Below, piece after piece: positions 4,066 to 54,022 of a stretch of 57,075 nt of DNA (position 1 is the stretch's first letter; each line of letters begins with the position of its first letter). The notes under the pieces are model-generated. The model saw only the letters and a program-made list of their open reading frames with translations, had not been told where the DNA came from and did not search any database. Both the position numbers and the translations under genes were made by a program. Origin of the DNA: a virus (Duplodnaviria > Caudoviricetes); the IMG/VR virus record IMGVR_UViG_3300030382_001515, positions 1-57,075 of that record; one strand, given 5' to 3'.

Positions 4066-4094
4066 ATTGTTGCCTCTGAGGAGATAACAGCAGT
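4066..4094 (+). promoter_or_regulatory. Conserved stem-loop in the major capsid leader
   Basis: ATTGTTGCCTCTGAGGAGATAACAGCAGT identical at 47746-47774 although flanks differ; can fold ATTGTTG/CAGCAGT plus CTC/GAG. Confidence 0.6.
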
Positions 4095-4132
4095 AGAAGC
4101 GTGAGCGTTTTTTACATTTAATCTTTAAATCG

Positions 4133-5545: not shown

Positions 5546-5570
5546 TTAATCTCTTAATTACGAATACAAT

Positions 5571-5598
5571 AAGGGGAGGCGTAAAGTTTCCCCTTTTT
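5571..5598 (+). terminator. Intrinsic terminator after capsid gene (T-phi position)
   Basis: AAGGGGAGGC-gtaaa-GTTTCCCCTT then T run; conserved at 49256-49282. Confidence 0.8.
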
Positions 5599-5607
5599 GT
5601 TTAAATA

Positions 5608-10279: not shown

Positions 10280-10281
10280 TT

Positions 10282-13200: not shown

Positions 13201-13590
13201 CAGAGAGTAGCTATAGAGACGGCTTTTAGAACTATGGGCGTTAATCTAAATTTAAAAGATCTACAAATACACGGATCTCGTATTGTTAATTATATGGATG
13301 CCAACGACGGTGATTTAGGTCCTCCTGATGAGTTTACCTGGAGTGGTCCCGCTAAAGGTTCAAGATATACACAAGCTAAGAAAGAGCACGCATCATTAGT
13401 AGAACAGTGGACTAGTTTACAAGAGGTTGTTAGACCTAAACCAACCTTCAGAGGTAAGGAGTTTATTCCATCTAAAAACATATGGGAAGTCAGAACTAGG
13501 TCTAAAAAGAGAGGAAGAGTTAAAATAACTGAATATAGTAATGACGGTGGTAAAACCTGGACCACTGAGAAACCACCATCTACCAAGTAA
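10282..13590 (+). CDS. Internal virion protein (gp15-like position) with C-terminal degenerate M23 peptidase-like domain
   Basis: 1102 aa; synteny; SPVNGQIVEVG...GNYVVV...SNL...EGEQI..NGVVGLQG resembles the M23 pattern. Confidence 0.7.
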   Translation: MATDRFQIKPARSRFDNLVAGPEPVPDIKPPAQPNREQVQQGGQLLDASSFQPGDSSAINQIEDFLKEGGLLNRSKEFGMQAWKDRARENADNYRRARRWFEAAEDANLKAERRTEIVDELRKKGYTKESMDVALSDRWTKFYIDDNDAFNAGVNAAIKLKSRINDDLNFVAGLPDVERGIYIQKQADNLLVGTEHLPQAAVNARIDPLIAQISAEAKANAQERALQLEANKITIKTRNSFMGSLMRVSSLTKIKGEGAETPITIDQAFLGEHKSLTQKHGKTYHDATDIIVGLIKENMYVDNDGDTLNDFGQDGALSLTTIYKALEGKKTAPGQPLFLDLTTSDGKTSIRKALMDAAHDATQKNSARSKQAAIEANGKLFSFKARLQRNAKQKWLSLPENYTLDDVQKLRTQLEEEIAAMDDNTIPDGWTVKSQRTFLDNNLPLTGTTSPDGSKELMKSWAERLVKEKKIFNIEDTPEDFQAALRDPSGHYYDFYGDVVGVFAKAETAQTQERIAELDRIIPTYITNAKKQLEKSIWEKDPTIVALRKVNTQESRNEIKRYKEAVMANISEMFAAEADTELRALFADVKDLDDKIAVNGVFQNYMESVKDNPMWSDIDTWLEVNPANPKLRTVREIGQRGNVQLGYKRVVDSRGGVTYEPTAKHIIEINDPYNGRSFGTYLQSKFAGDKDKYLNEYLNGTIVLSQDSLDGWTAALSGGDLSLITKDMREELANMSTLATDGAVAPWQVLEKTLQLYEGNGDKHRRKWMYPNSAALQQAMKRMAALTNTVDGIDAEQGALDRASIKGLPFTTVKDGEENFSTRYRIQKGSDLQGGNEVSSPVNGQIVEVGNNKTNGNYVVVQANSQGSYWAKGDLIKISNLANVSSVEGEQITRNGVVGLQGNDSELGSTELSTTGTGITPGEIDIQVMNKDGEQYGANTQRNFYNGAVVSLIQPVSELGVLSTEQVIPMGNTQRVAIETAFRTMGVNLNLKDLQIHGSRIVNYMDANDGDLGPPDEFTWSGPAKGSRYTQAKKEHASLVEQWTSLQEVVRPKPTFRGKEFIPSKNIWEVRTRSKKRGRVKITEYSNDGGKTWTTEKPPSTK

Positions 13591-31022: not shown

Positions 31023-31116
31023 AGAACCATCCAGTTATAATAGTTATATAACTGTTAAAACAGTTCCTTTAACTGTTTCTTTTACTGTTGTTACTGTTGT
31101 TACTGTCCCTTTACTG
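31023..31116 (+). repeat. Left arm of long imperfect inverted repeat with ACTG array
   Basis: AGAACCATCCA (31023-31033) and TTACTGTTGTTACTGTCCCTTTACTG (31091-31116) are exact reverse complements of 35244-35254 and 35167-35192. Confidence 0.85.
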
Positions 31117-31144
31117 CCCTACTATATACATACAATAGGTAATT

Positions 31145-31839: not shown

Positions 31840-31867
31840 CCCCCGGTGGGGTATAAATCGCCTCTTA

Positions 31868-31884
31868 TTGAGAGTATTTCTCAA
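31868..31884. promoter_or_regulatory. Fur-like 7-1-7 palindrome
   Basis: tTGAGAGT-A-TTTCTCAa, one mismatch per arm from TGAGAAT-N-ATTCTCA. Confidence 0.4.
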
Positions 31885-32952: not shown

Positions 32953-33125
32953 ATAAATCATCTGATCTACTAGCAGGAATAGAAATGATCTATTCACTTG
33001 CTAAAGAAAAGAGTTGGACTTCTGATCAACTTAATTCTCAAGTTCAGTCATTCATTAATGATTGGAAAGATAGAAGATCAAGTGATCTAAGTAAAAGACA
33101 CGGAGGGGATCTTGACGCTATCTAA
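32949..33125 (+). CDS. Early hypothetical protein, 58 aa (MNKSSDLLAGIEMIYSLAKEK...), absent from track
   Basis: ATGA coupling, open frame to TAA at 33123-33125. Confidence 0.6.
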   Translation: MNKSSDLLAGIEMIYSLAKEKSWTSDQLNSQVQSFINDWKDRRSSDLSKRHGGDLDAI

Positions 33126-33456
33126 AGAAACTAAGGCTACTCTCGACGTTATAGTCGAGGGTAAACCTCTTAATTTAAACAATAGCTTTTTTGCTATTGA
33201 GAGGTTGTATCAATGGGCAGACAATGCCGATGAAAGCTGTACTCTTTGGAATCTTTATCTAGATCTAATTGGATACAGTGAAGAGGTCTATGGCTGCTCA
33301 CTCCTTCACCTTGATGTTTACTCTGTCTCCCAAGTTCTTGGATATCAAGAGCTGTGCCACTTAGGTGATGCACTCAAAGTATTCGAGGATGATGGCTATG
33401 AATCAGTGTATAAATACATTGATCACCTAATTAGTACAGGTGAGAATGAAGACTAG
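33112..33456 (+). CDS. Early acidic hypothetical protein (start uncertain)
   Basis: 114-aa ORF, TTG start with GGAGG upstream; hairpin at 33138-33163 inside its 5' end. Confidence 0.6.
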   Translation: MTLSKETKATLDVIVEGKPLNLNNSFFAIERLYQWADNADESCTLWNLYLDLIGYSEEVYGCSLLHLDVYSVSQVLGYQELCHLGDALKVFEDDGYESVYKYIDHLISTGENED

Positions 33457-33529
33457 TTACTACATCCTTGTGATGTTATGGCCAGTTATTATCTCTGTTC
33501 TTATACAACTCTCAGCCTCCTCAAATTGA
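33446..33529 (+). CDS. Possible 27-aa hydrophobic peptide (MKTSYYILVMLWPVIISVLIQLSASSN)
   Basis: Overlaps upstream stop; single-TM-like; ends within terminator. Confidence 0.4.
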   Translation: MKTSYYILVMLWPVIISVLIQLSASSN

Positions 33530-33541
33530 GGGGGCTTTTTA
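33514..33541 (+). terminator. Intrinsic terminator ending the early operon (possibly bidirectional)
   Basis: AGCCTCCTCA-aat-TGAGGGGGCT then T run; between convergent genes. Confidence 0.8.
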
Positions 33542-33545
33542 TTAT

Positions 33546-33695
33546 TTAACTAAGCAATGTTTGTCTTAGTGCTTGAGCTAAATCTCTATAAGAACAAGCA
33601 ACAAATAGCTGTCCTCCTAATACTGTGAGGGTAGCGATTGACCAGAAGATGTAGTAATACCTCTGCTTATGTTGAAGTGGAGGTGTACTAGGCAT
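33546..33695 (-). CDS. 49-aa single-TM protein (MPSTPPLQHKQRYYYIFWSIATLTVLGGQLF...), absent from track
   Basis: Open frame with TM segment; overlaps upstream small ORF; converges on terminator. Confidence 0.7.
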   Translation of the reverse strand: MPSTPPLQHKQRYYYIFWSIATLTVLGGQLFVACSYRDLAQALRQTLLS

Positions 33696-33768
33696 GAGGA
33701 TTATAAAATCTAATGATTAAATAAACTAAGATAATCATTGCTAATAAAACAGCAATAGTATCAATCAT
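33688..33768 (-). CDS. 26-aa membrane peptide (MIDTIAVLLAMIILVYLIIRFYNPHA), absent from track
   Basis: Hydrophobic open frame overlapping next gene's start. Confidence 0.55.
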   Translation of the reverse strand: MIDTIAVLLAMIILVYLIIRFYNPHA

Positions 33769-33779
33769 GATTAATTGTT

Positions 33780-33798
33780 GAGAATGAGAATCAATAGC
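33780..33798. promoter_or_regulatory. Fur-box-like site
   Basis: GAGAATGAGAATCAATAGC matches 15 of 19 positions of GATAATGATAATCATTATC. Confidence 0.5.
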
Positions 33799-33802
33799 AG
33801 AG

Positions 33803-33834
33803 TAGTACAGGTGTACTATAGTACAAACATACTA
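33803..33834. promoter_or_regulatory. Tandem cyanobacterial LexA boxes
   Basis: Perfect palindrome TAGTACA-GG-TGTACTA (33803-33818) abutting TAGTACA-AA-CATACTA (33819-33834); first fits RGTACNNNDGTWCB. Confidence 0.7.
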
Positions 33835-33847
33835 GGTAATAATACCC

Positions 33848-33856
33848 TGTGGAAAA
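33848..33856 (-). promoter_or_regulatory. DnaA box (TTTTCCACA)
   Basis: TGTGGAAAA on plus strand, 14 nt from the LexA boxes. Confidence 0.5.
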
Positions 33857-33988
33857 CTTGAGTACAGCTAGCCTCCCCTCTCAAAGAAGGGCCACGGGAT
33901 GATGGGAGTTGTACTATCACGTCTTCGTGATGATGCTTATGCAAACTCATCTTGATTTAAACTGCTAGTAGGTAGCTTACTGGACAGT

Positions 33989-34369
33989 ATGGCAAGTAAA
34001 GCAGCAAAAGAGAAGTTCTATGGACCACTTAAGCAAGTGGCTAAACAGTACCTACCTATGCTCATGGCACGGCTGAAGGTCCTTGAAGATCGCTCACTCA
34101 ACGCGATGGACTTCTTGGATGCAGAAGCTGATACAGAGCACGAGTTTGTGTGGGAGTTTGATGAGGCTGAAAGGATCTCCTCAGTAGCGGAAGCACAGAC
34201 AGACCTGCACACAGCAGTATTAGAGGCAGGAACGTGTCAGTCTTTGGTCGGGGCATTTATAGACCTATTACAAGAGGATTATCCAAAGATAAGAGATAGC
34301 AGCTGCTTCTTTGTTGGTCCTGATGGTAGACACGTATCACTGTATGAGGGACAGCATCCTAATCAATAA
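33989..34369 (+). CDS. Hypothetical protein
   Basis: 126-aa ORF, divergent from the 33768 operon. Confidence 0.7.
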   Translation: MASKAAKEKFYGPLKQVAKQYLPMLMARLKVLEDRSLNAMDFLDAEADTEHEFVWEFDEAERISSVAEAQTDLHTAVLEAGTCQSLVGAFIDLLQEDYPKIRDSSCFFVGPDGRHVSLYEGQHPNQ

Positions 34370-34517
34370 CTTGTTTCTTATACATTGTGTCAAGACCATC
34401 TAGAAAGCCTTCCCAATAGTCTTTATCTCTGTCTCCTATAGCGTCTTTGTATTGCTGTTTGGCGTACTCATAGGTCTCAGTGAGGTACTCAATGTCAAAC
34501 GTCACGTACTCTTTCAT
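34359..34517 (-). CDS. Hypothetical protein, 52 aa (MKEYVTFDIEYL...)
   Basis: ATG at 34517 with AGGA upstream; longer track start overlaps the riboswitch unit. Confidence 0.6.
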   Translation of the reverse strand: MKEYVTFDIEYLTETYEYAKQQYKDAIGDRDKDYWEGFLDGLDTMYKKQVID

Positions 34518-34524
34518 CAGTCCT

Positions 34525-34559
34525 AAAAAGTATAAAGGCTCCTGGTTAAAGGAGCCCTT
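34525..34559 (-). terminator. Terminator after riboswitch-controlled peptide
   Basis: Minus strand AAGGGCTCCT-ttaacc-AGGAGCCTTT-atacTTTTT. Confidence 0.65.
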
Positions 34560-34564
34560 ATATC

Positions 34565-34615
34565 TTAATGTGCCTTCCTGTAATAGACGACACCACGGTA
34601 GACGAGTTTGGTCAT
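34565..34615 (-). CDS. Downstream peptide, DUF4278-like, 16 aa (MTKLVYRGVVYYRKAH)
   Basis: LxYRGVxY motif, AGAGGA RBS, directly 3' of the riboswitch motif. Confidence 0.85.
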   Translation of the reverse strand: MTKLVYRGVVYYRKAH

Positions 34616-34632
34616 GGGTTGATCCTCTTAAC

Positions 34633-34685
34633 ACCTATTCCCCGTTCCTTGAATAGGTTGCCTGCGTCCCTTTATGGGATGAACG
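34633..34685 (-). ncRNA. Downstream-peptide RNA motif (glutamine-II riboswitch)
   Basis: Minus strand CGTTCATCCC-ataaa-GGGACGCAGGCA-ACCTATTC-AA-GGAACG-GG-GAATAGGT: P1 CGTTC/GAACG, P2 TCCC/GGGA, pseudoknot ACCTATTC/GAATAGGT. Confidence 0.88.
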
Positions 34686-34726
34686 TAAGCTAGAGGTTAT
34701 CAGATCTGGTAGCCGTTGCTACTAAC

Positions 34727-34735
34727 AGTATACCA
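34727..34735 (-). promoter_or_regulatory. Extended -10 promoter (TGgTATACT) for the riboswitch unit
   Basis: Sigma70-type TGn plus TATACT about 40 nt upstream of the aptamer. Confidence 0.5.
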
Positions 34736-34750
34736 CTCTGTAATGTGTCA

Positions 34751-35122
34751 CTAGAATTTATACTTAGCCCCGACTTTAGAACCCCAAGTATTATCAGTGT
34801 CATCAACAGTGACCATTGATAACTCACCATAGACATCAAGCTTCTCGGTAGCAGCTACGCTAAGGCCAGCCTTACCACTGAACTGAGTATCGTTGTCAGA
34901 AGTACCGTCAGTACTAATAACTGCTGGTCCTCCTTGAATGTAGTATCCGAGGTTGTCCTTTCCCAGATCCCCTTCGTATCCAAGATGGATATCTGTTGTG
35001 GAGCCTGTAAAATTAGAGCCTGTGTTTGAGCCATTGTATTCAACGTTTGTATAGAAATCACCAGCAAGGGCAGGAGCTGAGCCTACACCTAGCAGGGCAG
35101 CTAGAGCTATTGCGAACTTCAT
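34751..35122 (-). CDS. Small outer-membrane beta-barrel (porin-like) protein
   Basis: Signal peptide ...APALA, amphipathic beta strands, C-terminal GAKYKF beta-signal. Confidence 0.75.
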   Translation of the reverse strand: MKFAIALAALLGVGSAPALAGDFYTNVEYNGSNTGSNFTGSTTDIHLGYEGDLGKDNLGYYIQGGPAVISTDGTSDNDTQFSGKAGLSVAATEKLDVYGELSMVTVDDTDNTWGSKVGAKYKF

Positions 35123-35166
35123 TAGTAATAAATGTTACGACCTTTGTAGCTTAACAGTTAATAGAT

Positions 35167-35254
35167 CAGTAAAGGGACAGTAACAACAGTAAAGAAAACA
35201 GTAAAAGGACAGTTATTAAACTGTCTACCTTAAGGTATACAATTGGATGGTTCT
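35167..35254 (-). repeat. Right arm of long imperfect inverted repeat with CAGT array
   Basis: Reverse complement of 31023-31116 elements; CAGT at 35155, 35167, 35178, 35187, 35199, 35210. Confidence 0.85.
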
Positions 35255-43197: not shown

Positions 43198-43913
43198 TGA
43201 GACAGCATCCATACAAACAGCTTCTGGAAAGGAAGCGTACCTGGACTCCCGTGCGTCCAACAGCAGGAAAGCTGAAGGAAGGCTCTGAAGAGACTATTAA
43301 ACGTGCTCTATCTATAAGACACCTTGAACTACCCGTAGGAGGGTTCATCAAGGCGGCTCTTGAAGATATCCCAGTTTTATCTAAGGAGCTTCTAGAGGAC
43401 AACGTAAGAGATGAGGATAGGCATGATATAGCCCTCAATTATATTGCTGAAGCTCATGGTGTAGATGAGAAAGCTGAGGCTGAAGCTTTTAGACTTCAAG
43501 CAGCTTGGAAGGCTCACCCTGATCCCACAGTTTTAAAAGCTCTTGTAATTGAGAAAGCTATCTTTTTTGTGTTGCTGCCTTTCTTCAGATTCAACGGAGA
43601 CACTGGGATGAGGGTTACATCAGCGGATATCAGCCGTGATGAGACCATCCACGTAAGTGGTCATAGTCTTGTGTGTAGAGAAAAGGGTTGGACTCCTAGC
43701 CCATCTTTAGATAAACTAAGGAAAGCAACAATTAATTGGGTTCTTCAACCTTTAGGTGATTCTGAGGATCGCTATCTAAACAAAAAGTTTTGGTTAGATC
43801 AAAGTGATAATCTCATGTATCGTGGTAAGGCTGAAGGCTTAGCTGATACTAAGAGAGCTAGAGTTCCTGCTTTCTTTGAAACTAGCAATTCCGATTTACC
43901 GAGTTACGCATAA
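43185..43913 (+). CDS. nrdB: Ribonucleotide reductase class I beta subunit, minimal ferritin-like
   Basis: LELPV, DEDRH, IEKAIFF and DETIH dimetal ligands; adjacent to nrdA; C-terminal Tyr. Confidence 0.85.
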   Translation: MCRMMRQHPYKQLLERKRTWTPVRPTAGKLKEGSEETIKRALSIRHLELPVGGFIKAALEDIPVLSKELLEDNVRDEDRHDIALNYIAEAHGVDEKAEAEAFRLQAAWKAHPDPTVLKALVIEKAIFFVLLPFFRFNGDTGMRVTSADISRDETIHVSGHSLVCREKGWTPSPSLDKLRKATINWVLQPLGDSEDRYLNKKFWLDQSDNLMYRGKAEGLADTKRARVPAFFETSNSDLPSYA

Positions 43914-44608
43914 TGGGTTGGTGGAGCAGAGCTTGGAAAGCAGTTACTGCCCCAGTTAGGGCAGTTGTAAACGTTGCTAAAGATGTAACTAAAAAGGTTG
44001 TTAATGTAACTAAAGATGTAGTTAAAGTTACAACCCAAGCAGCTAAAGATGTAGTTAAAACTACTACAAAGGTAGTAGGTAACGTAGCTAGAGGTGTTGA
44101 CGATCTTCAAAAAAACGTCCGAAAAAATGTTAACAACGTTGTAGAGGACTTATCAGGAGCTAGAGACCGTAGAAAAGCTGCAGAAGATTTAGAAAGGGCT
44201 GCTGCTGAGCAGAGCGAAGCTCAAGAGGCTTACGATAAACAAGCTGCTGAGATTAAAAGGCAGACAGAAGATCAGAAAGCTCAAATGGCTGCTGCTACAG
44301 CAAAGCAAACAACAGCTACTCAAGAAGCTCAAAGAATAGAAGCTGAAACTATAGAGAAAACTAGAATTGCTGAACTTGAATCTAAACGTTTAAGTGCTTC
44401 TACTAGAGTTCAAACTCAAATAGACGCAGCTACAGCAGCTAGACAAGCTCAAATCGCAGAGCAACAGGCTATTGCAAGTCTTCCAGAGGAAGATGATGAT
44501 ACTGGAGCAGGACCAACTGTTACAAGAACACCTATAGCAACACCCGTTCCTGGGGGTTATGGTGGTACTGAACCTGGTGCTATTAACCCAACTGGCTTGA
44601 ATATATGA
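43913..44608 (+). CDS. Putative virion-associated protein, copy B
   Basis: Homolog of 255-947. Confidence 0.7.
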   Translation: MGWWSRAWKAVTAPVRAVVNVAKDVTKKVVNVTKDVVKVTTQAAKDVVKTTTKVVGNVARGVDDLQKNVRKNVNNVVEDLSGARDRRKAAEDLERAAAEQSEAQEAYDKQAAEIKRQTEDQKAQMAAATAKQTTATQEAQRIEAETIEKTRIAELESKRLSASTRVQTQIDAATAARQAQIAEQQAIASLPEEDDDTGAGPTVTRTPIATPVPGGYGGTEPGAINPTGLNI

Positions 44609-44778
44609 TTCCTGTAATTGATGAGCAATTAATTGAATATTTAGAAGAGGTCTATCCAGATAAGGCTCCAGATATTAGTATAGAAGAGAAGCAAATATGG
44701 TTTAATGCTGGACAGGTGGCGGTTGTACGTCATTTGAAGGATCAGTATAGACTACAAGAAGAAACTAAGTACAACTAG
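44605..44778 (+). CDS. Conserved hypothetical 57-aa protein, copy B
   Basis: Homolog of 944-1117. Confidence 0.85.
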   Translation: MIPVIDEQLIEYLEEVYPDKAPDISIEEKQIWFNAGQVAVVRHLKDQYRLQEETKYN

Positions 44779-44780
44779 AT

Positions 44781-45287
44781 ATGGCCGCTACTGCTACCGC
44801 TATTCTAATTGGTTCTGTCTTAGCTGGTGGAGCCACAGTTTACGCAGCTCAAAAGGCTGCCTCAAATGCTAGAAGAGCTGCTAAACAAGCTAGAGAAGAT
44901 GCACGTTTAATGCGTGAGCAATCTGATAAAGAGATTGCACAAATGCAGTCGAGTGCAAAACAGAATCAATTACAATTTGAAACTAATATAGCTGAGACTC
45001 GAAAACGAACACAATTATCTATTGACCAAGCTAGTGCGGCACAACAAACAGCACTTAAATCGATAGCTCAACAACGATCCACATCTCAGAGGGCTATACA
45101 ACAATCAAATTTACAAAGTAGAATCCAACAACAGCGGTCAGCTCATAACGTTGGTAGGAAATCTAGGAAGAGAGTTGGCACACCTAGAGCTTTAAGAACT
45201 AAAGTGGAGACAAACTCTGCTTTAGCTATGGGAGGTGGTACTGGGGGTGGTACAACTAAATCAGGTACTGGCGGTCTAAATGTCTAA
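44781..45287 (+). CDS. gp7.3-position virion protein, copy B
   Basis: Homolog of 1121-1630. Confidence 0.65.
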   Translation: MAATATAILIGSVLAGGATVYAAQKAASNARRAAKQAREDARLMREQSDKEIAQMQSSAKQNQLQFETNIAETRKRTQLSIDQASAAQQTALKSIAQQRSTSQRAIQQSNLQSRIQQQRSAHNVGRKSRKRVGTPRALRTKVETNSALAMGGGTGGGTTKSGTGGLNV

Positions 45288-46884
45288 AAACACAGCTCAG
45301 GCTCTTTATTCTTTTCTGGAGCCAGAGAAATCCATTTATCTCGATAGAGGTATTGAGTGTAGTAAATACACGCTACCTACTCTTATTACTGAGAATGATA
45401 AGAGTAGTGGGAGGAATCTCTATACAAAAATTAACACTACTTATCAAGGGCTGGGCGCTAGAGGTGTTAATCACTTAGCGAGCAAACTTTTGATTGCTCT
45501 ACTACCACCAAACCAAGCATTTTTTAGGTTATCTGTAGATGATATGAAGCTCCAGAAGGAGTTAGATAACTATAAAGAAATCCAATCACAATTTGATCAA
45601 CAACTTTCTCTAATGGAGAGGGCTGTTATGAGAGATATAGAGGAGTCAGGAGATAGGACTGCTTTATTTGAAGCTCTTAAACATCTCCTTGTTAGTGGAA
45701 ATGCTTTATTATATATAGCTGAAAACGGTACTAGGGTTTATCCTCTTAAGTCTTTCTGTTTAAAGAGAGATCCAGAAGGAAATATTTTAGAAGTAGTTAT
45801 TAGAGAAGAAGTTAGTACTGATGTTTTACCTGAAGGTACAGCTCCTAAGAATGGTGATGGTAAGTTTACAGATAAAACTACTTTCCTATTTACTCACGTT
45901 CAATGGGATTATAAGAAAGCTAAATGTAACTGGTATCAAGAAGTTTATAGCAAGAAGATAGGAAAACCAGGCTCTTCTCCTATGGATAAGTGTCCGTTCA
46001 TTCCTTTACGACTATTCCGAGTAGCTCACGAAGCTTATGGACGCAGCTTTTGTGAAGACCTATTAGGGGATCTTAAGTCTCTTGAGTATTTATCTAAAGC
46101 AATTGTTGAAGGATCTGCAGCCGCAGCTAAAATAATCTTCTTATGTAACCCAAATGGAACTACACGACCCGATGCGTTGGCTAGAGCTAGCAATGGTTCT
46201 ATTGTGGCTGGCAATCCTAATGATGTAGCACCACTGCAAATGAATAAGCAGGCTGACCTCACGGTTGCCCTGAATACTATTGCTCGTATAGAACAACGAC
46301 TTAGTTTTGCTTTCTTATTGAATAGTGCTATCCAAGCTGGTACTCAAGGTAGAGATAGGGTTACAGCAGAAGAGATCAGAATGATTGCACAAGAGCTTGA
46401 GACTGGTCTTGGAGGGGTTTACTCCATACTTTCTGTAGAACTACAGCTACCTATGGTTCATAGAAAGATGGCACTGATGGAACGTCAGGGCCGCTTACCG
46501 AAATTACCGAAGGATATAGTTAAGCCACGTATTACGACTGGACTAGATGCTTTAGGTAGAGGTAATGACAAAGTTAAACTAATTGAATTTATCCAAACCC
46601 TAGCTCAAACCTTAGGTCCTGAAGTTATGAGTAAGTTTGTTAATAACCAAGAACTTATTACAAGACTTGCTGCTTCTGACGGATTAGATACTTACAAGCT
46701 TATAAAATCTGAAGAAGATTTAGTGGCAGAAGAACAGCAACAGGCTATGATGATGCAACAACAAGCTGCAGGTCAGGATCCACAAAATGATCCTGCTAAA
46801 CAAGCAGCCCTTATTAAAGCAGAAAATGACTCAGTCAGGACGGGACAGGAAGTTGCAGCAGCCCAAGGTCAAGCTGGAGCCTAA
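45280..46884 (+). CDS. Portal protein, copy B
   Basis: Close homolog of 1623-3215. Confidence 0.95.
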   Translation: MSKNTAQALYSFLEPEKSIYLDRGIECSKYTLPTLITENDKSSGRNLYTKINTTYQGLGARGVNHLASKLLIALLPPNQAFFRLSVDDMKLQKELDNYKEIQSQFDQQLSLMERAVMRDIEESGDRTALFEALKHLLVSGNALLYIAENGTRVYPLKSFCLKRDPEGNILEVVIREEVSTDVLPEGTAPKNGDGKFTDKTTFLFTHVQWDYKKAKCNWYQEVYSKKIGKPGSSPMDKCPFIPLRLFRVAHEAYGRSFCEDLLGDLKSLEYLSKAIVEGSAAAAKIIFLCNPNGTTRPDALARASNGSIVAGNPNDVAPLQMNKQADLTVALNTIARIEQRLSFAFLLNSAIQAGTQGRDRVTAEEIRMIAQELETGLGGVYSILSVELQLPMVHRKMALMERQGRLPKLPKDIVKPRITTGLDALGRGNDKVKLIEFIQTLAQTLGPEVMSKFVNNQELITRLAASDGLDTYKLIKSEEDLVAEEQQQAMMMQQQAAGQDPQNDPAKQAALIKAENDSVRTGQEVAAAQGQAGA

Positions 46885-47059
46885 GGTTGTTATTTCAGAG
46901 GAGGTAGATACTGCACCTCCAAAAGTAGAGAATGAGATTGAACGACGTATTAGAGAATTAAAAGAACAAAAGCCTAATATCTATGAGGAGTATAAAAATG
47001 CTATTAAGAGTCAGAAACGTGCCACAATAGGCCCTGACTTATCTCTACGTGTCGGTTAA
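46787..47059 (+). CDS. Hypothetical protein overlapping portal end, copy B
   Basis: Homolog of 3130/3169-3393. Confidence 0.7.
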   Translation: MILLNKQPLLKQKMTQSGRDRKLQQPKVKLEPKVVISEEVDTAPPKVENEIERRIRELKEQKPNIYEEYKNAIKSQKRATIGPDLSLRVG

Positions 47060-47062
47060 ATT

Positions 47063-47716
47063 ATGGAGTTAAATTCTGGAGATGGCGCAGCTACGCAGGA
47101 AACTGGGCCGTATAACGAGGCGGATCTCGAAATTATCAAAGAGGGTGATCAAGCACAATCTCAAGAACAGCAACCACAAGAAGACCTTATCGGTGGTAAG
47201 TTCAAAACTGCAGACGACCTCCTTGAGGCTTACCAAGCGCTTGAAAAGAAACTTGGAGACCGTGCAGGCTATCAAAGGACTGAAGAGGAATCTAAGGAGG
47301 GAACAGAAGAGACTGAAGCGAAAGGAGCTGATCTAGATGATGGTCCTATTACTCAGGAAGAAGAGACTGCTATTTTAGAAAGTGTGGGAGGTAAAGAGTC
47401 TTTCACCAAGATACAAGAGTGGGCTAAAGGCGCTCTTAATGAAGATGAGCTAACCGTCTACAACAGGGAGGTTGCTAGTGGTGATTACTTCAGAGCGAGG
47501 AATGCGCTTCAATCTATGGCGTTTGCTTATACCGAAAGTAATGGCTCTGAACCAAACTTAATAGGAGGAAAACTAACAGGTCGTAGTACTGATGTATTTC
47601 GCTCTAATCAAGAAGTTGTAGAAGCTATGAGTGATCCTAGGTATCTTAAAGATTCTGCTTATACACAGGATATAGAAGAAAAGCTAGGACGTAGTGACGT
47701 ATTAACACCTAGATAA
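47063..47716 (+). CDS. Scaffolding protein, copy B
   Basis: Homolog of 3397-4038. Confidence 0.9.
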   Translation: MELNSGDGAATQETGPYNEADLEIIKEGDQAQSQEQQPQEDLIGGKFKTADDLLEAYQALEKKLGDRAGYQRTEEESKEGTEETEAKGADLDDGPITQEEETAILESVGGKESFTKIQEWAKGALNEDELTVYNREVASGDYFRARNALQSMAFAYTESNGSEPNLIGGKLTGRSTDVFRSNQEVVEAMSDPRYLKDSAYTQDIEEKLGRSDVLTPR

Positions 47717-47745
47717 GCTAATATTAAAGAAGCTTAAGTATTTAT

Positions 47746-47774
47746 ATTGTTGCCTCTGAGGAGATAACAGCAGT
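47746..47774 (+). promoter_or_regulatory. Capsid leader stem-loop, copy B
   Basis: Identical to 4066-4094. Confidence 0.6.
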
Positions 47775-47811
47775 GGTGTACTAAGCATTAAGCATTTTAA
47801 CTATTAAATCG

Positions 47812-49230
47812 ATGCCAGATTTTTCGAGCATCTCCAGGTTAGGTGGCATTAATGGCGCTCAGTATAACGCCAACTCTGCTGCTGGCAACTACGAAAAGGA
47901 GAATGCAAATTTCATGAAAATCTTCTCTGGAGAAGTCCTAACGGTCTTCAATAGGGAAACTATTTTCAAAGACTTAACCCAAAAGCGTACCATCTCATCG
48001 GGAAAATCCGCTGAGTTTCCAATCACGGGACGTTTTTCTAGCCGCTACCATCGTCCAGGCGATTGGATCACAGGCCAAGGCAACAAAGGGATGACAGGAT
48101 CAAAGATTATTACAATCGACGATCTACTTATCGCAGATGCCTCGATCTATGATTTAGATGAAGCCAAACTTCACTGGGACGTTAGGTCTATATACTCAAA
48201 AGAATTGGGTAGGGCACTTTCAAGAGCCTATGACCAGCGTCTAGTTCGCACACTTCAAACAGCTTCCGAGTCTGATGGTCGTGTTAAGGACTGGGATTCT
48301 AAGAGATTCCAAATTGCAGGTGGTACTGTAGCTTCTGTTGCAACTGCCACAGGTGTTGTAACTATAAGCGCTAACTTCGCAACTGCTGAGCTTTCATACT
48401 GGGCTGTTGGTGAAAGTGTTTATGGTGAAGACTCAGGTGCTTACGGTGTTATCACTGCAGCTCCTACAAACGGTGCTGCTGTATTCACAATCAGTCCTGT
48501 TGGTGCTATTGGTACTGGTACTGATTCAGTCTTCAAGGTTGGAGAGCGTCTATTCGTTCTTAATTCACTTCCAGGTGGAACAGCCATAACAACAGGAACA
48601 CTTAGCGCTACGAGAGCTACTCGTGGTGATGAGATTGTTGAGCAGTTCTATCAGGCTTGCCAAGCACTTGACGAGAAAGACGCTCCTCGTGAGGGTCGTG
48701 TCGCAGTGGTTGGACCTGGCGCTTACTATGACTTGATCTCTTCTGCAAGAGCAATCAACACTGACTGGAACTCAGGCGGTGGTGAGAACGGTTCCTTCAA
48801 AGGAAACAAAGTTCTTAGTGTTGCTGGTTTTGATATCAGGGTATCTAATCACCTTGGTGACAACGCTTACAACTCAGCTCGTCAGGGCTACATCGGTCAA
48901 GCTAACCAAGCTGCTACAACTCGTGGTGAACGTCCTAACTACATCAATGGTAACGACGGTTCCGACGGTACGGCTGCTGCAGGTACTAACGACTACTGGC
49001 AGGATGAGCAAGGTAATACTTCAAGTATTGCTAACTTGTTCGCTCTTTGCTTCACTAAAGAAGCAGTGGGTACAGTAGCTCTTAAGGATCTGAATATGCA
49101 GATGACTGGTTCTGAGTACAAAGCGATGACTCAGAGCACCATGATGGTTGCTTCTTATGCTGTTGGTCACGGTATACTCCGTCCCGACTGCTGTGTAAGC
49201 ATCAAGCATGATGGCACAAACCGCTGGTAA
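47812..49230 (+). CDS. Major capsid protein, copy B
   Basis: Close homolog of 4133-5545. Confidence 0.95.
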   Translation: MPDFSSISRLGGINGAQYNANSAAGNYEKENANFMKIFSGEVLTVFNRETIFKDLTQKRTISSGKSAEFPITGRFSSRYHRPGDWITGQGNKGMTGSKIITIDDLLIADASIYDLDEAKLHWDVRSIYSKELGRALSRAYDQRLVRTLQTASESDGRVKDWDSKRFQIAGGTVASVATATGVVTISANFATAELSYWAVGESVYGEDSGAYGVITAAPTNGAAVFTISPVGAIGTGTDSVFKVGERLFVLNSLPGGTAITTGTLSATRATRGDEIVEQFYQACQALDEKDAPREGRVAVVGPGAYYDLISSARAINTDWNSGGGENGSFKGNKVLSVAGFDIRVSNHLGDNAYNSARQGYIGQANQAATTRGERPNYINGNDGSDGTAAAGTNDYWQDEQGNTSSIANLFALCFTKEAVGTVALKDLNMQMTGSEYKAMTQSTMMVASYAVGHGILRPDCCVSIKHDGTNRW

Positions 49231-49255
49231 TTAATTCCTTAATTACGAATACAAT

Positions 49256-49282
49256 AAGGGGAGGCGTAAGTTTCCCCTTTTT
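49256..49282 (+). terminator. Terminator after capsid gene, copy B
   Basis: AAGGGGAGGC-gtaa-GTTTCCCCTT plus T run. Confidence 0.8.
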
Positions 49283-49290
49283 GTTTAAAT

Positions 49291-49926
49291 ATGGCAACTA
49301 CAAAACTACAAGCAGTAAATACTCTTCTATCCATTATTGGAGAAGCACCAGTTAACTCATTGGTTCCTCCTTTAACAGGTGATACAAGTCTTGCAGACAG
49401 TGTTATTGATGAGATAAGTAAAGAGATACAAGGAGAAGGGTGGTCTTGGAATACTATGATGTATGATTCAATACCCCTAGATACGAATGGACATAGCTCT
49501 CTTCCTAGTAATACCCTTGCTGTAAGATTTAACCCAGTTTCATACCCAACCCAACGTTTTGTATTAAGAGGTATAAAGTTATTTGATCGTGTCAAGAACT
49601 CCTATGATTTAAGAGGAAGTCTTGGTGTGGCTTTAACTGGTAGTACTACAGATTTAGTTGCTGAACTTATAGAAGAATTAGTTTGGGATGAGGTACCAGA
49701 AACAGGTAAACGTTATATCATGATACGAGCTGGAAGAATCTTTGCTAACAGAGCTATAACATCAACCAGCATAGAAGCCTATACTCAAGAAGATGAAGAG
49801 AATGCTCGTCAGATATTAAAACGTACAGAGGATATGGCACAGAACTGTAACTTCATTAGTGGTCCTGATGATTTATATGATGGTCGTGTAAGAACTACCT
49901 TTGGTCCTGATATTCTCAACCGCTAA
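49291..49926 (+). CDS. Tail tubular protein A, copy B
   Basis: Homolog of 5608-6246. Confidence 0.92.
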   Translation: MATTKLQAVNTLLSIIGEAPVNSLVPPLTGDTSLADSVIDEISKEIQGEGWSWNTMMYDSIPLDTNGHSSLPSNTLAVRFNPVSYPTQRFVLRGIKLFDRVKNSYDLRGSLGVALTGSTTDLVAELIEELVWDEVPETGKRYIMIRAGRIFANRAITSTSIEAYTQEDEENARQILKRTEDMAQNCNFISGPDDLYDGRVRTTFGPDILNR

Positions 49927-52900
49927 TGTCAAAAGAACTTTTTAGTCAGATAATTGGTCCACTGAATAAAGGAGTGAACCAACAGGCAGATAGCTTTGTC
50001 TTACCAGGTTTTGCTAAGACACTTGAAAATGGTAACTGTGATCTTGTAGAAGGTCTTAAGAAGAGGCTTGGATCAGTTCCCGTAAAAAGGATTGATACTC
50101 TTACTAAGAATGCAGGAGGTAATACTTTAGTAGGAACAATCAAGTGGGATGAAGCTTGGGTATACGTTTACAACAGGAGTAGTGATGAAAGGTTCATACT
50201 TATTGTCGCTGATGACAGCAGGACTATTACTAAAACTGTTAATACTGTCAATAACTCTGCGGTACTTACTGTAACTTCAGGAGGGATGACTGATCTATTT
50301 GTAGGATCAATAGTCACAGGAACAGGTATAGGAGCTGGAGCAAAAATCGTAGAGATAGGAGCTAGTACTATTACTGTTGATAAGAACTCAACTGCAACTG
50401 CCTCAGGTATTACTGCCACCATTGAATCTAACTATACATTTACTGCAGGGGTATCCAATGTAGAGCCTATAAGTGGCACACTCCCCAGTGTGGTTCCTGT
50501 TGAACAGACATTTGCAAATATAACTAATACAAATCTTGAATACCTACGTGGGTCAGGTAGAGCTAGGGATAGGTTTAGAGCAACCTCATTCCAAGATTAT
50601 GTATTTATAACAAATACACAAAAGAAAACTGCTTATGACAGCTCAGAAACTTTAACGAGATATAATATCGGATCTATAAGTAGTGCTTACCAACCTATAA
50701 AGGCTCAAGTTTGGGTTAAGCTCGTTGACTACAATACAGAGTATTCAGTTGATATTGAGCTAGACGACGGAGATAAGATAAACGGTCATTATATGACACC
50801 AACTCTTACTGACACTAGTGGTAACGCAAACGTTGTTAGTTCTGCCACTATTGCAGAAAGACTAGTTACGTATACAAACACTATTACAGGAACTACAACC
50901 AGTGGCAACCCTACGATTACAAGCGTTAGTACTACTGCAGCTACAGGAGATATTTGGAAAGTTCACGGTGGAGAACTCATTACTGGTACAGGTATACCAT
51001 CCAATACTTTTGTTAAAGATGGAAGCGTTGACACTTCAGCGGGTACTTTCACTCTTGTTAATGAAGCTGGGTCTAATGTAAACGCAACAGCTAGTGGAGC
51101 TGTAACTCTTACCCTTAAGCACGGCTTAGATGATTGTGATATTAACAATAAACTTACATTTGAAGTAAAGGATTCTCAGATATTAATAGGATGTGCCAGC
51201 GCTTCTAGATACATCAAAAGCTTTGTAGCCTCTGACGCTAGAGGTAATAGTTTAATGTCTGGTTTTTCTAATCAGGTTACCTCTATAGTTGATCTTCCTA
51301 CCACATCTTGGGAAGGCTACACAGTACTTGTAGCTCCAGATGGTACAGCAGATAAGAGTTCTTACTATTTAAAATTCAACGCTGAAAATACTACAGTTGC
51401 TGGTACTTATGGTAGAGGTACTTGGGAAGAATCTAGCGGTTGGGGTGCTAGAGGAAAGCTAGATGACAATACAATGCCTCACGCTTTTGTTTATTACAGA
51501 AATGCTGATGGTCTTGTAAGGTTCACATTTCAACCCTTTAGTGGTAGTAATTATACAGACGGTACTATAACTATTGCGTTACCTGGCTGGGTTGAAAGAT
51601 TAGCAGGTGATGAGAGTGAACAGGAGGGTCCTTCTTTTGTTGGGTTTACTATTAATGATGTTGTGTTCTTTAAGAACCGTTTAGGGTTCATTAGCGGAGA
51701 AAACGTAATACTCAGTGAAGCTGGGTCTTACTACAACTTCTGGCAGCAATCAGCTCTACAGGTTATAGACAACGATCCTATAGATTTAACAGCTGTTAGT
51801 AACGACGTCGCTGTACTTAACTATGCTTTACAGCAGCAGGATGAATTAGTACTCTTCTCTAATGAGAACCAGTTCAGACTCTACTCAGGTGACAACGTAA
51901 CGTTTAGTCCTGAGACTGCCTCTGTAGGTAGGATTAGTTCCATCACTATGGAAGCAAAGGTTAAACCACAGCAGGTAGGACCTCAAGTAATTTTCCCAGT
52001 TAGAGAGGGTGACTTCACTGGGATGCATACTTTCATTACTACAGACAGAACAGTAGGAATAAACCTAGGTCAAACTGCTGTTATTACAGAGACAATACCT
52101 AAGTACATCCCTAAGAACATAGATTCTTTAGCTGTAAGTAGAACTGATCAATATTTAGTAGCCCTTAGTGGTGATGATCCAGATGCTTTATATATATATC
52201 AATTCTTCTGGGAAGCTACTGGTGGCTCACTAACTAACAGACAGAACGCTTGGTCTAAGTGGACATTCCCTAACAAAGACATCTATTGGTGTGACTTTGT
52301 TGAGGGTACTTTATTTACACTGGTTAAGTATACGGAGAATAGTGTTGTTAAGTATTACCTGGAAGGTATAAACGCTTCTAGACCTCCTCAAGATGAGAAG
52401 GATCTGTTTTTACTAGATAGACAATTATCTAGTTCTATTACTACAGATTTAGGAGCCCCAACATTTACCTATAGCGGCCTTACTAATAAAACAACAGTAA
52501 GTCTCCCTTACTACACCGTTAACGATAGTCAGTTTGTCATTCTCAAAAAGGATACAACAGATGCAACAGAGTCTGCGAAGCGTTGGATCGTGGCTGCTTC
52601 TATTCCGGCTGGGGTTAACTCTTTTGTTTGCGATAGCTTGGGAGATTTTAGTGGTGCGAACGTTTCTTGGGTCTTTGGGGAGAAAGTTACATTCAAGTTT
52701 ACTCCGCCTCAGCTCATGCCCTATAGCAAAACTGCGACAGACAACACTTTTATTGGCAATCGTACTGGTCGCCTTCAGCTACGATATGTGGATGTTTACT
52801 ACAATGATGCACGATACTTCACCATCGACGTGACTCCTGATTTCAGAGATAAGAAAACTTACGAGTTCGATAGAAGAGACCCTCTTAATGCGAACATCGT

Positions 52901-53066
52901 GTTAAGCCAAGCATCTGACTTTGATGAAAGTAAGTTCAGAGCTTATATCCAAAGTAAGAACGACCAAGTTAGAGTAGAAGTAGTAAACGACAGCATTGAT
53001 CAAGCTAAGTTCGTCGCTTTAGAATGGACTGGCTTGTACTTTGACGTAGCGAGGAAGTACGGTTAA
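49926..53066 (+). CDS. Tail tubular protein B, copy B
   Basis: Homolog of 6246-9386, same length. Confidence 0.92.
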   Translation: MSKELFSQIIGPLNKGVNQQADSFVLPGFAKTLENGNCDLVEGLKKRLGSVPVKRIDTLTKNAGGNTLVGTIKWDEAWVYVYNRSSDERFILIVADDSRTITKTVNTVNNSAVLTVTSGGMTDLFVGSIVTGTGIGAGAKIVEIGASTITVDKNSTATASGITATIESNYTFTAGVSNVEPISGTLPSVVPVEQTFANITNTNLEYLRGSGRARDRFRATSFQDYVFITNTQKKTAYDSSETLTRYNIGSISSAYQPIKAQVWVKLVDYNTEYSVDIELDDGDKINGHYMTPTLTDTSGNANVVSSATIAERLVTYTNTITGTTTSGNPTITSVSTTAATGDIWKVHGGELITGTGIPSNTFVKDGSVDTSAGTFTLVNEAGSNVNATASGAVTLTLKHGLDDCDINNKLTFEVKDSQILIGCASASRYIKSFVASDARGNSLMSGFSNQVTSIVDLPTTSWEGYTVLVAPDGTADKSSYYLKFNAENTTVAGTYGRGTWEESSGWGARGKLDDNTMPHAFVYYRNADGLVRFTFQPFSGSNYTDGTITIALPGWVERLAGDESEQEGPSFVGFTINDVVFFKNRLGFISGENVILSEAGSYYNFWQQSALQVIDNDPIDLTAVSNDVAVLNYALQQQDELVLFSNENQFRLYSGDNVTFSPETASVGRISSITMEAKVKPQQVGPQVIFPVREGDFTGMHTFITTDRTVGINLGQTAVITETIPKYIPKNIDSLAVSRTDQYLVALSGDDPDALYIYQFFWEATGGSLTNRQNAWSKWTFPNKDIYWCDFVEGTLFTLVKYTENSVVKYYLEGINASRPPQDEKDLFLLDRQLSSSITTDLGAPTFTYSGLTNKTTVSLPYYTVNDSQFVILKKDTTDATESAKRWIVAASIPAGVNSFVCDSLGDFSGANVSWVFGEKVTFKFTPPQLMPYSKTATDNTFIGNRTGRLQLRYVDVYYNDARYFTIDVTPDFRDKKTYEFDRRDPLNANIVLSQASDFDESKFRAYIQSKNDQVRVEVVNDSIDQAKFVALEWTGLYFDVARKYG

Positions 53067-54022
53067 TGGCAAAAGGACCAACCTATACACCATCTTTGGG
53101 TTCAGCTTATTCAGGAGCGAACTACGACTGGAGTGGTACGAGTAGTATTAGTTTTTCACAAGGAGCGAAACTTAATACTGGAAATCTGATAAAGAGCTCT
53201 CCTAACATATCGAGCAAGAACCAGTTCATGTCTCCTGGCATGATGGCAGGTCTTGATGCTGGGTTTGCGGTTGCTGGTATGTATTTCCAACACCAAACTA
53301 ATAAGTACGAAACTCAACGTCAAAACGCTGTAGCAGAACAACAGTACTACAGAGCAAAGCTTAATAAGGAGAAAGAGAACTACCGTAATTTTGCAGTAGA
53401 TCTACGGAACTGGTATAGAGATACAGATTGGGTAGAACAGCGTAGACAGTATGAACAGAAACGTAAGGAGCTTCAAGCTGGGTATAAGGGGGAAGTAACT
53501 ATTGCAGCTACTAAAAACTTTGAAAGGATGATGGCTAATATTGAAGGTAGGTTTTATGAAGAAGAAGCTAGAGATATCGTTCAGTTAGACAGCATTAGAA
53601 CTGAGTTTATATCTCAAGCAGTTAAGAAGGTAGCTTCTGGACAGGCTGGTAGAACAGTCAAAGCTTTAGGTAATCAATTTGAGCAACAGTGGTTAGCTAA
53701 CCTCAGTAACCGCAATATTACTCGTAGGTTTAGGATACAAGATAAGGAGAATCAAAAGGTAGCTGCAGACACAGCTAGAGAGAACTCAGTTAACGCTGTT
53801 CAGTTCTATACACCAACACCTCTTGCAGACACTGTGAAACCTATGATGCCTCTACCTGTTGAAGGTGTTGCACCTACTCCAGCTACATCAACTGGAGGTT
53901 TAGGAATTAAGATTGCTCAACAGGGTCTAAAATCCTATCAAAAATACATTGATGCACAGCCTTCTTACCCGAAGGGTGATGCTCCAAAACGTACTCCAGT
54001 TTCACTAGGCGAATCTAAATGA
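53066..54022 (+). CDS. Internal virion protein (gp14-like position), copy B
   Basis: Shared core with 9386-10279 (WYRD.DWVEQRR, NIEGRFYEEEA); different termini. Confidence 0.65.
   Translation: MAKGPTYTPSLGSAYSGANYDWSGTSSISFSQGAKLNTGNLIKSSPNISSKNQFMSPGMMAGLDAGFAVAGMYFQHQTNKYETQRQNAVAEQQYYRAKLNKEKENYRNFAVDLRNWYRDTDWVEQRRQYEQKRKELQAGYKGEVTIAATKNFERMMANIEGRFYEEEARDIVQLDSIRTEFISQAVKKVASGQAGRTVKALGNQFEQQWLANLSNRNITRRFRIQDKENQKVAADTARENSVNAVQFYTPTPLADTVKPMMPLPVEGVAPTPATSTGGLGIKIAQQGLKSYQKYIDAQPSYPKGDAPKRTPVSLGESK

Follow-up and report, generated by a model that had tools for sequence, protein, structure and literature searches.

Positions 33446-35254 of the viral record IMGVR_UViG_3300030382_001515 raise the question of whether a dense cluster of regulator-like sites and small genes constitutes one system through which a phage senses the state of its host. 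The window analyzed here is the whole of that record, a stretch of 57,075 nucleotides (nt) with a G+C content of 40.3%. An earlier note on this DNA had proposed that iron, DNA-damage, replication and nitrogen inputs are wired there to tiny membrane proteins. The analysis presented here suggests that the region is probably a mosaic made up of five or more separate transcription units, two of which plausibly read host state independently. The first is the control region of a 126-residue protein, p126, which carries operator-like sequences for the host repressors LexA and Zur. The second is a minus-strand unit in which a glutamine riboswitch precedes a 16-residue peptide. Control of p126 and of the peptide by host regulators appears likely from these sequence features, and the most useful result, on the same footing, is that p126 is preceded by an array of LexA and Zur operators that is conserved yet varies between lineages.

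The region encoding ssb and an endonuclease is 67% identical at the nucleotide level to that of Prochlorococcus phage P-RSP2, and the gene order matches. On these grounds, the window is a P-RSP2-like T7-like cyanophage, a group termed clade R (PMC12695635); P-RSP2 is an outlier in cyanopodovirus phylogenies and was isolated on Prochlorococcus MIT9302 (P-RSP2 record; Table 1 of PMC4646655). No match to the phage-type RNA polymerase family was found in the window, which is weak evidence given that the control search matched in no control genome, and no tyrosine integrase was matched in the window. With this reservation, the earlier description of an RNA polymerase-less, lytic-type phage stands.

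The LexA sites lie in a 220-nt intergenic stretch (33769-33988) flanked by diverging genes, with minus-strand micro-genes on one side and the plus-strand p126 gene on the other, in line with the divergent promoter region and genes on both strands described previously. Here, two abutting boxes match AGTAC-N4-GTACT with 0 and 1 mismatches, and both fit the cyanobacterial LexA consensus AGTACWNWTGTACT (PMC3091678, Table 1 of which lists the reverse complement of the first window box). The box junction, GTACTATAGTAC, reads TACTAT on both strands. A search of the window with the LexA 16-mer at up to 3 mismatches returned 15 matches against 5.4 expected, a number reached in 0 of 100 shuffles, and the only perfect match in the record is this tandem site. 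In variant contigs from other samples, changes were observed only at the spacer bases 33811 and 33827 or as ATACT to GTACT at 33829, such that the natural variants keep or improve the half-sites.

To place these boxes among relatives, a profile search with a p126 alignment was used to collect 80 loci, of which 45 remained for enrichment analysis after dereplication. Loci with less than 200-250 nt of upstream sequence were left out of the enrichment and the tree (L015, L055, L076 and L079 are among those excluded from the tree). Within 250 nt upstream of p126, 30 LexA boxes (≤1 mismatch) were found in 11.25 kb, compared with 14 in 208 kb elsewhere in these loci. The corresponding densities are 2.67 and 0.067/kb, and shuffled sequences gave a mean of 0.34 and a maximum of 2 boxes. 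At least one box was present in 17 of the 45 loci, some of which carry arrays of 3-5 abutting boxes with a 16-bp period, and the boxes of some relatives copy the host lexA operator GGTACAAATGTATT. On the p126 tree, the LexA-box trait must have been gained or lost at least 8 times, with well-supported branches forcing 6 of these changes, and boxes occur in all 8 members of the window's own subclade. The possibility that LexA boxes are unique to the window, which was suggested by box-less P-RSP2 and the two closest loci, was reversed by this wider locus set. The tandem LexA sites of the earlier note are present, and such boxes are enriched upstream of p126 in relatives.

The conserved target beside these operators, as judged by its distribution, is p126, a soluble helical protein, and not the membrane micro-proteins to which the inputs had been thought to be wired. 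In tblastn searches, the 26-residue protein p26 was detected in at least 8 and the 49-residue protein p49 in at least 4 of the 80 loci, both counts being lower bounds because queries of 26-49 residues under-count homologues. The structural model of p126 (predicted local distance difference test score of 83) shows a long helical hairpin accompanied by a small β-hairpin. None of its 282 relatives, which lie on contigs of up to ∼43 kb, is named. A profile search of the PDB, Foldseek searches of the PDB and BFVD, and the ESM Atlas returned only its own P-RSP2 homologue, and Pfam matches to p126 were weak and below cut-off (PHD_like, 15.6 bits). An ACTATCA(C) element is located 66-128 nt before the p126 start codon in 41 of the 45 loci and contains TACTAT, read as the putative −10 hexamer for transcription of p126. 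In 6 loci this element is overlapped by the nearest LexA box, and in 9 the box stops 9-41 nt short of it on the upstream side, together 15 of the 17 LexA-positive loci.

Two side observations concern the same region. The sequence ACTATCAC occurs in the window in 6 plus-strand copies (33913, 35280 and four others) and 1 minus-strand copy, against an expectation of ∼0.9 on each strand. One of these copies, 13 nt ahead of the start of ssb, is part of a repeated CCTTTCAACTAT(C/G)AC that also precedes the gene at 32114. In several loci (L006, L011, L034, L051 and others), 2 copies of GCCACGGGG-type units stand in what is presumably the 5′ leader, after ACTATCAC and ahead of p126.

The neighboring palindrome had been described as a Fur-like site providing an iron input, an identity that was abandoned in favor of Zur. 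The window site is not matched by the Escherichia coli Fur 19-mer within 3 mismatches, and no good site was found in the regions upstream of the host flavodoxin gene isiB and two host Fur-family genes. Instead, the host motif marks the znuA-zur/znuC promoters and ferritin. The box is thus better read, from its sequence and the host context of the motif, as a degenerate Zur (zinc) box. TTGAGAATGAGAATCAATAGCA matches the RegPrecise cyanobacterial Zur box, as printed in PMC9337993, at 14 of 17 specified positions (manual count), and zinc-dependent binding of Zur to znuA/znuC-type boxes in Synechococcus WH8102 is described in the same paper. Across 101 picocyanobacterial genomes, the Zur-type motif was found 100 times compared with 31 for a reversed control, and in genomes of at least 2.0 Mb the counts were 60 and 1 (manual tally). 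Of 30 host sites that were fetched, 11 lie in divergent znuA-zur/znuA-znuC promoters (≤400 nt from the start of znuA, zur or znuC); another 2 precede ferritin. In three high-light Prochlorococcus genomes, the best conserved sites are at a ferritin/Crp-regulator/ABC cluster and in the znuC-znuA spacer.

Among the relatives of the window, most carry clean palindromes of the form TGAGAAT-G-ATTCTCA in 1-5 copies. In the 45 loci, 41 Zur-type boxes (≤2 mismatches) were found upstream of p126 and 12 elsewhere (3.64 versus 0.058/kb), and when scored by a matrix derived from 12 host znu operators, relatives reach up to 27 bits, with 19 of 45 above every shuffle. Upstream of p126, 22 loci contain Zur-type boxes only, 10 LexA boxes only, 7 both and 6 neither. 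TTGAGAATGAGAATCAATAGCA itself is kept as a 20-22-mer across the subclade and recurs at distant loci, and it is because of this conservation, together with the much better palindromes of relatives, that the window box is counted at all. Given its weak score and the strong scores of relatives, the Zur-type box would be a degenerate remnant in the window, where LexA boxes dominate, with the reverse holding in other lineages. Compared with the znuA/znuC operator of Synechococcus WH8102 (PMC9337993), the boxes share the 7-1-7 palindrome but are phage-borne and arranged in arrays of 1-5 before p126, with a degenerate copy in the window. The motif was also considered as a promoter element, but TTGAGA read as a −35 hexamer leaves no consistent −10 at 17-18 nt across relatives. 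Separately, a second Zur-type palindrome, TTGAGAGTATTTCTCAA (31866-31884, 2 mismatches), with the same CTGTGGAAAAC 11-mer 29 nt upstream, sits in a 420-nt non-coding stretch before the early operon, and P-RSP2 has Zur-type boxes in two further early intergenic regions (3366-3433 and 8270).

The combination of the two operators is not confined to phages that encode p126. An exact search for two abutting LexA boxes retrieved 50 viral contigs, 5 of which encode p126 and 45 of which have no p126 match. After dereplication of the latter to 40, 14 were found also to contain Zur-type boxes within 300 nt, with 25 such boxes in the 25.3 kb near the LexA tandems versus 6 in 304 kb. Neighbors of the tandem boxes in these contigs include GP88-family and HNH genes, beside which five IMG/VR contigs (L275, L268, L271, L264 and L287) carry dense interleaved LexA and Zur-type arrays. 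On these counts, the pairing of SOS and zinc operators is recurrent in marine viral contigs and not a quirk of the window. No description of LexA or Zur boxes in cyanophages was found in the literature searched; the supplements of PMC6212724 and PMC9337993 may bear on the NtcA and Zur claims.

These observations can be accommodated by the following working model, in which binding and the direction of regulation are inferred. The phage would depend on host RNA polymerase, and the region would be early or accessory. The control region would serve p126 together with the divergent membrane micro-genes for p26 and p49 that this phage carries, with operators comprising the two strong LexA boxes, a LexA half-site over the putative −10 hexamer TACTAT and the degenerate Zur-type box; in relatives, the region holds either or both kinds of box, with 1-5 strong Zur boxes and 1-5 LexA boxes. 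When the phage enters, these promoters would be bound and held down by the LexA of the host and by its Zur loaded with zinc. Self-cleavage of LexA would lift the block after ultraviolet (UV) irradiation, or when phage replication or breakdown of host DNA generates single-stranded DNA, and loss of zinc from Zur would do likewise. The outcome would be a host-dependent timer or condition gate for a phage that lacks its own polymerase.

In its broadest form, which is offered tentatively and is rather doubtful as a whole, this proposal would hold that marine cyanophages without their own RNA polymerase or repressor borrow host LexA and Zur through interchangeable early-promoter operator arrays that are gained and lost between lineages and are common to at least two unrelated phage groups. 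Such arrays would either gate lysis on DNA damage and zinc, giving a delayed or carrier-state infection without an integrase similar to that of GIL01, or titrate both repressors so that host SOS functions and zinc uptake are switched on. Several findings weigh against the operator interpretation. LexA boxes are absent from 28 of the 45 relatives and from cultured P-RSP2, and are thus not essential to the clade; p126 has no recognizable fold family or functional match; and in the window, 79 and 95 nt separate the ends of the strong boxes from the putative −10, which is far for simple occlusion of the p126 promoter and may mean that the boxes work by looping or belong to the divergent promoter instead. 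With the host znu matrix, TTGAGAATGAGAATCAATAGCA scores 11.0 bits, below the shuffled window (mean maximum 11.9, highest 16.7). In addition, the Zur-type motif is barely above control in small, AT-rich genomes of Prochlorococcus size (40 versus 30), the counts in three complete high-light Prochlorococcus genomes being 29, 28 and 21 compared with 21, 20 and 15 for the control.

The distance of the strong boxes from the putative −10 would also be explained if the replicating operator arrays act as decoys that sponge LexA and Zur, thereby switching on the host SOS regulon (recA and others) and znuABC to the benefit of the phage. Such a role would fit the size of the arrays, which reach 5 boxes in clade R and 12 LexA-like boxes in L275, as well as the pairing of LexA with Zur beside unrelated genes in 14 of the 40 contigs described above and a zinc-finger-like CxxC...CxxC at the start of the phage primase (manual reading). 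By contrast, many relatives have a single box, and the position of boxes overlapping or abutting the −10-like element in 15 of the 17 LexA-positive loci is that of a classic operator. A decoy function is on this evidence unlikely as the main role of the arrays, although switch and decoy roles could coexist.

A less probable reading, and a distinctly unlikely one, is that the 15-21-bp palindromes are sites for a phage protein, either replication-origin iterons or targets of a phage repressor, and that their likeness to host Zur boxes is coincidence or mimicry. The palindromes form iteron-like arrays of 2-5 with start-to-start spacings of mostly 32-59 nt in the loci checked, lie just upstream of ssb, primase-helicase and DNA polymerase while always adjoining p126, and recur in the other early intergenic regions noted above (31868 in the window, and both P-RSP2 regions). 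Against this, the same 7-1-7 motif with the same central G/C is present at host znuA-zur/znuC promoters, the p126 model has no recognizable DNA-binding fold, and the motif stands beside LexA arrays in phages without a p126 match. Recognition of the palindromes by host Zur is retained as the preferred reading.

The second unit that plausibly reads host state is encoded on the minus strand, where the glutamine-II riboswitch unit proposed earlier is well supported: the aptamer scores far above its gathering threshold and is followed by the 16-residue open reading frame (ORF) and a terminator. The ATG of the peptide lies 17 nt after the aptamer, and all 22 phage units that were compared retain the peptide core, KL[VT]YRGxxY. 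In the same 22 units, the TG-extended −10 varies only within TAnnnT. An NtcA-type box, GTAGCAACGGCTAC, lies over the expected start site. Its GTA-N8-TAC pattern is present in 19 of 22 units at a fixed place relative to the −10, in two unrelated leader types including the P-RSP2 type, and although inner positions vary, GTA and TAC are kept. An Rfam scan, which covered 40 of the 80 loci together with the window, L002 (P-RSP2), L004, L005, L260 and L261, detected the riboswitch in P-RSP2, in all but one of 20 near loci and in 2 of 20 distant loci; the exception among the near loci, L008, breaks off 41 nt past p126. The earlier proposal of a nitrogen input through a metabolite sensor is well supported by conservation of the aptamer, the NtcA-type box and the peptide core across phage units.

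The phage unit bears a close resemblance to host genes. Host Prochlorococcus riboswitch units, located by riboswitch pattern, fall into two classes, one of which encodes DUF4278 proteins (Pfam, 9e-11). In this class, GTAGC-N4-GCTAC, nearly identical to the phage box GTAGCAACGGCTAC, stands just before the aptamer. According to PMC6212724, IF17-like DUF4278 genes are preceded by the type 2 glutamine riboswitch, which raises expression after ammonium addition, and in MED4 a perfect NtcA site covers the position at which transcription of the gene starts, implying repression. The RF01704 aptamer and the order of −10, box, aptamer and YRG-containing ORF are common to the phage unit and the host DUF4278/IF17-like genes (Klahn et al. 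2018, PMC6212724). Given that the host order of NtcA box and riboswitch is matched, the phage unit would appear to copy both layers of host control. The differences are that the unit is phage-borne, has a terminator directly after the ORF, and encodes 13-18 residues with one LxYRGxxY repeat, whereas host proteins have 55-65 residues and three repeats. In the proposed mechanism, this near copy of the host leader, consisting of the −10, an NtcA box over the start site and a glutamine-ON riboswitch, would be repressed by NtcA when nitrogen is short, such that the peptide would be made only in nitrogen-replete, glutamine-rich cells.

Two points temper this interpretation. DUF4278 (PF14105, cut-off 25.3 bits) had no match in the window at E ≤ 10, and a 33-residue phage homologue scores 15.1 bits, compared with 39-42 bits for host proteins; because it falls below the Pfam cut-off, the peptide is called DUF4278-like rather than a member of the family. 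Host copies of GTAGC-N4-GCTAC never vary in their arms, and the NtcA box could instead be a small leader hairpin, GTAGC-aacg-GCTAC, a reading that is conceivable but disfavored by the phage variants GTAGCAACGACTAC, GTAGCAACGGTTAC and GTAACAACGACTAC, which break or weaken the inner pairs and keep GTA and TAC. Peptide-gated attenuation of p52, the gene next downstream, was also considered, since the stop codon lies 3 nt before the terminator, yet most riboswitch-bearing relatives have no p52 match. Phage-borne cis-regulatory glutamine aptamers have also been reported in S-CREM1, S-SCSM1 and Melnitz (PMC9004378); these are myoviruses, with transfer-messenger RNA the controlled gene in Melnitz, whereas here a podovirus carries a whole host-type peptide unit. 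Glutamine-II units with peptides like the 33-residue phage form were also observed on two short contigs filed as Chloroflexota and Dehalococcoidia metagenome-assembled genomes (L146 and L151), which may be mis-binned phage or cyanobacterial DNA.

That these parts nevertheless form one integrated host-state-sensing module (Fur, LexA, DnaA, riboswitch, micro-ORFs and barrel), as the earlier note held, would be in keeping with their location within 1.8 kb and with a near clade of 23 loci that keeps the outer membrane protein (OMP) gene, as 19 of 20 near loci keep the riboswitch. The co-conservation check that the note had named was run across the relatives, and it showed the sites, the riboswitch and OMP to be distributed independently. 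OMP was found in 23 of 24 near loci, in 0 of 56 distant loci and not in P-RSP2, which has the riboswitch, lacks a LexA box and carries an hli-like gene (manual reading) in place of OMP. Operators occur without the riboswitch in 18 of the 20 distant loci scanned, and in two cyanomyoviruses no glutamine riboswitch was found within 2.5 kb of the OMP homologue. Furthermore, promoters and terminators are not shared between the units, the "Fur" site resembles Zur boxes instead, and the micro-ORFs are detected in few relatives. The DnaA site, considered to be a replication input, is at chance level (TTWTNCACA; 6 matches in the window versus 6.24 expected) and none of 81 other loci has it in the 400 nt preceding p126, with <100 nt available for five of them. 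A single module is accordingly very improbable. The broader idea that the phage reads host physiology through host regulators survives, by conservation, for the LexA sites and the nitrogen input, and fails for iron, replication and integration into one system; OMP, p52 and the 27-residue ORF would be separate passengers in the mosaic favored here. In two unrelated contigs with LexA arrays, TGTGGAAAA was observed nearby (3 copies in 25 kb versus 9 in 304 kb, a weak hint); L287 contains two TGTGGAAAA repeats.

Finally, it is hardly credible that the regulator-like sites are all functionless chance matches, for although this holds for the DnaA 9-mer, for the window Zur-type box judged alone and for bare GTA-N8-TAC, which is not enriched in the window (21 versus 17.5 expected), it is contradicted by the 40- to 60-fold enrichment upstream of p126 that no shuffle approached, by perfect palindromes in many relatives and by tandem LexA boxes in 50 viral contigs, an exact 20-base pattern not expected by chance (own estimate).

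The closest known parallel to the LexA arrangement is the temperate tectivirus GIL01, in which SOS boxes lie in an early promoter beside a gene for a small phage protein, no CI-type repressor is present, and host LexA is used as repressor with the small co-factor gp7 (PMC4551915, PMC6182141). GIL01 is temperate, infects Bacillus and has Gram-positive-type boxes, whereas the phage considered here looks lytic and boxes are present in only 17 of 45 relatives.

Phage promoters that borrow host nutrient regulators are otherwise represented by cyanophage genes under host PhoB and NtcA. The present case would differ in the regulators involved, LexA and Zur, and in having arrays that are composed differently from one lineage to the next. 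Cyanophages shape the ocean's main primary producers, and both the timing of gene expression in phages wholly reliant on host RNA polymerase and the stalling of infection in stressed hosts are poorly understood. If the proposal is correct, SOS and zinc operators on phage promoters would link host DNA damage (UV, high light) and trace-metal status to infection. A zur mutant of Synechococcus WH8102 exists (PMC9337993), and with P-RSP2 on MIT9302, tests of operator function look feasible. The phage unit also trims DUF4278 to a single 16-residue repeat, which may help to define the active part of the host family.

Features of the region 33446-35254, in order of position. KD17, Kyte-Doolittle maximum over 17 residues.
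Feature	Position	Strand	Remarks
27-residue micro-ORF, one hydrophobic segment	33446-33529	+	last gene of the early operon; homologues in L008, L011, L012; KD17 2.36
Terminator-like hairpin, then T run	33514-33536	+	10 pairs, 6 G-C
49-residue membrane micro-protein (p49)	33546-33695	−	phrog_2000 match, 6e-16; KD17 1.69
26-residue membrane micro-protein (p26)	33688-33768	−	first of divergent minus-strand pair; KD17 2.86; 8 distinct homologues
Degenerate Fur-family (Zur-type) operator TTGAGAATGAGAATCAATAGCA	33778-33799		same 20-22-mer in relatives
Two abutting cyanobacterial LexA boxes	33804-33833		AGTACAGGTGTACT at 33804-33817; AGTACAAACATACT at 33820-33833
DnaA-box-like 9-mer TTTTCCACA, chance match	33848-33856	−	not conserved
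Degenerate LexA box, right half-site intact	33902-33920	+	overlaps clade-wide ACTATCAC element (putative p126 −10, TACTAT)
p126, 126-residue clade-specific protein	33989-34369	+	two long helices and small β-hairpin (predicted)
p52, 52-residue acidic protein	34359-34517	−	convergent with p126; widely kept in clade, 47/80 loci at E ≤ 0.01
Intrinsic terminator	34531-34562	−	begins 3 nt after peptide stop codon
16-residue peptide MTKLVYRGVVYYRKAH	34565-34615	−	equals one LxYRGxxY repeat of host DUF4278 proteins
Glutamine-II (Downstream-peptide) riboswitch aptamer	34633-34688	−	RF01704, 54.7 bits versus gathering score 33; model 1-60
Putative promoter of the riboswitch unit	34709-34735	−	extended −10 TGGTATACT at 34735-34727; NtcA-type box GTAGCAACGGCTAC at 34722-34709
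123-residue signal-peptide β-barrel, Phage_OMP	34751-35122	−	PF24653, 1e-37, 129.4 bits; phrog_417
ACTGT-rich array upstream of OMP gene	35159-35254		inverted copy of 31023-31124, 88-91% complementary

The remaining genes of the region are arranged as follows. The plus-strand early operon ends with a gene for a 114-residue protein (33112-33456, phrog_33275) and the overlapping 27-residue ORF, after which comes a terminator. On the far side of p126, the OMP gene, the riboswitch unit (promoter, 16-residue ORF and terminator) and the p52 gene converge on p126 from the minus strand. The three micro-ORFs with membrane-spanning segments that had been noticed previously are all in place, and substitutions at codon positions 1/2/3 number 37/21/47 for the 27-residue ORF, 27/11/55 for p49 and 46/26/65 for p26; this third-position bias supports the micro-ORFs as coding. 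The corresponding values for p52 are 627/461/921. The predicted mini β-barrel proved to be a Phage_OMP protein, scoring well above the PF24653 cut-off of 27 bits, with an N-terminal hydrophobic stretch ending in ALAG and a final F residue. With a full-length match to PF24653/phrog_417, a signal peptide and the C-terminal F, it is an ordinary member of the family in which no difference was seen, here podovirus-borne and beside a riboswitch unit on which the barrel does not depend.

The record as a whole consists of one genome of ∼43.66 kb, after which the structural module appears a second time in diverged form (window 1-13400 and 43659-57075), 74-95% identical in blocks of 100-300 nt; this is probably the result of the assembly running on into a co-occurring relative. 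In P-RSP2 (L002), whose record ends repeat ∼515 nt, an unannotated 35-residue hli-like ORF (154-260) and a lysine-rich 55-residue protein (316-483) replace the OMP gene upstream of the riboswitch. In the cyanomyovirus Sf-FR1 (a Synechococcus phage; L260, 3001-3100), a wcaG RNA motif (93.9 bits) lies directly downstream of a Phage_OMP homologue. The inverted ACTGT/ACAGT-rich arrays of ∼90 nt each precede a gene reading away from them, namely the plus-strand gene at 31146 and the OMP gene, and may represent a shared promoter or regulator module; similar AACAGTT runs are found upstream of ssb in L004, L005 and P-RSP2.

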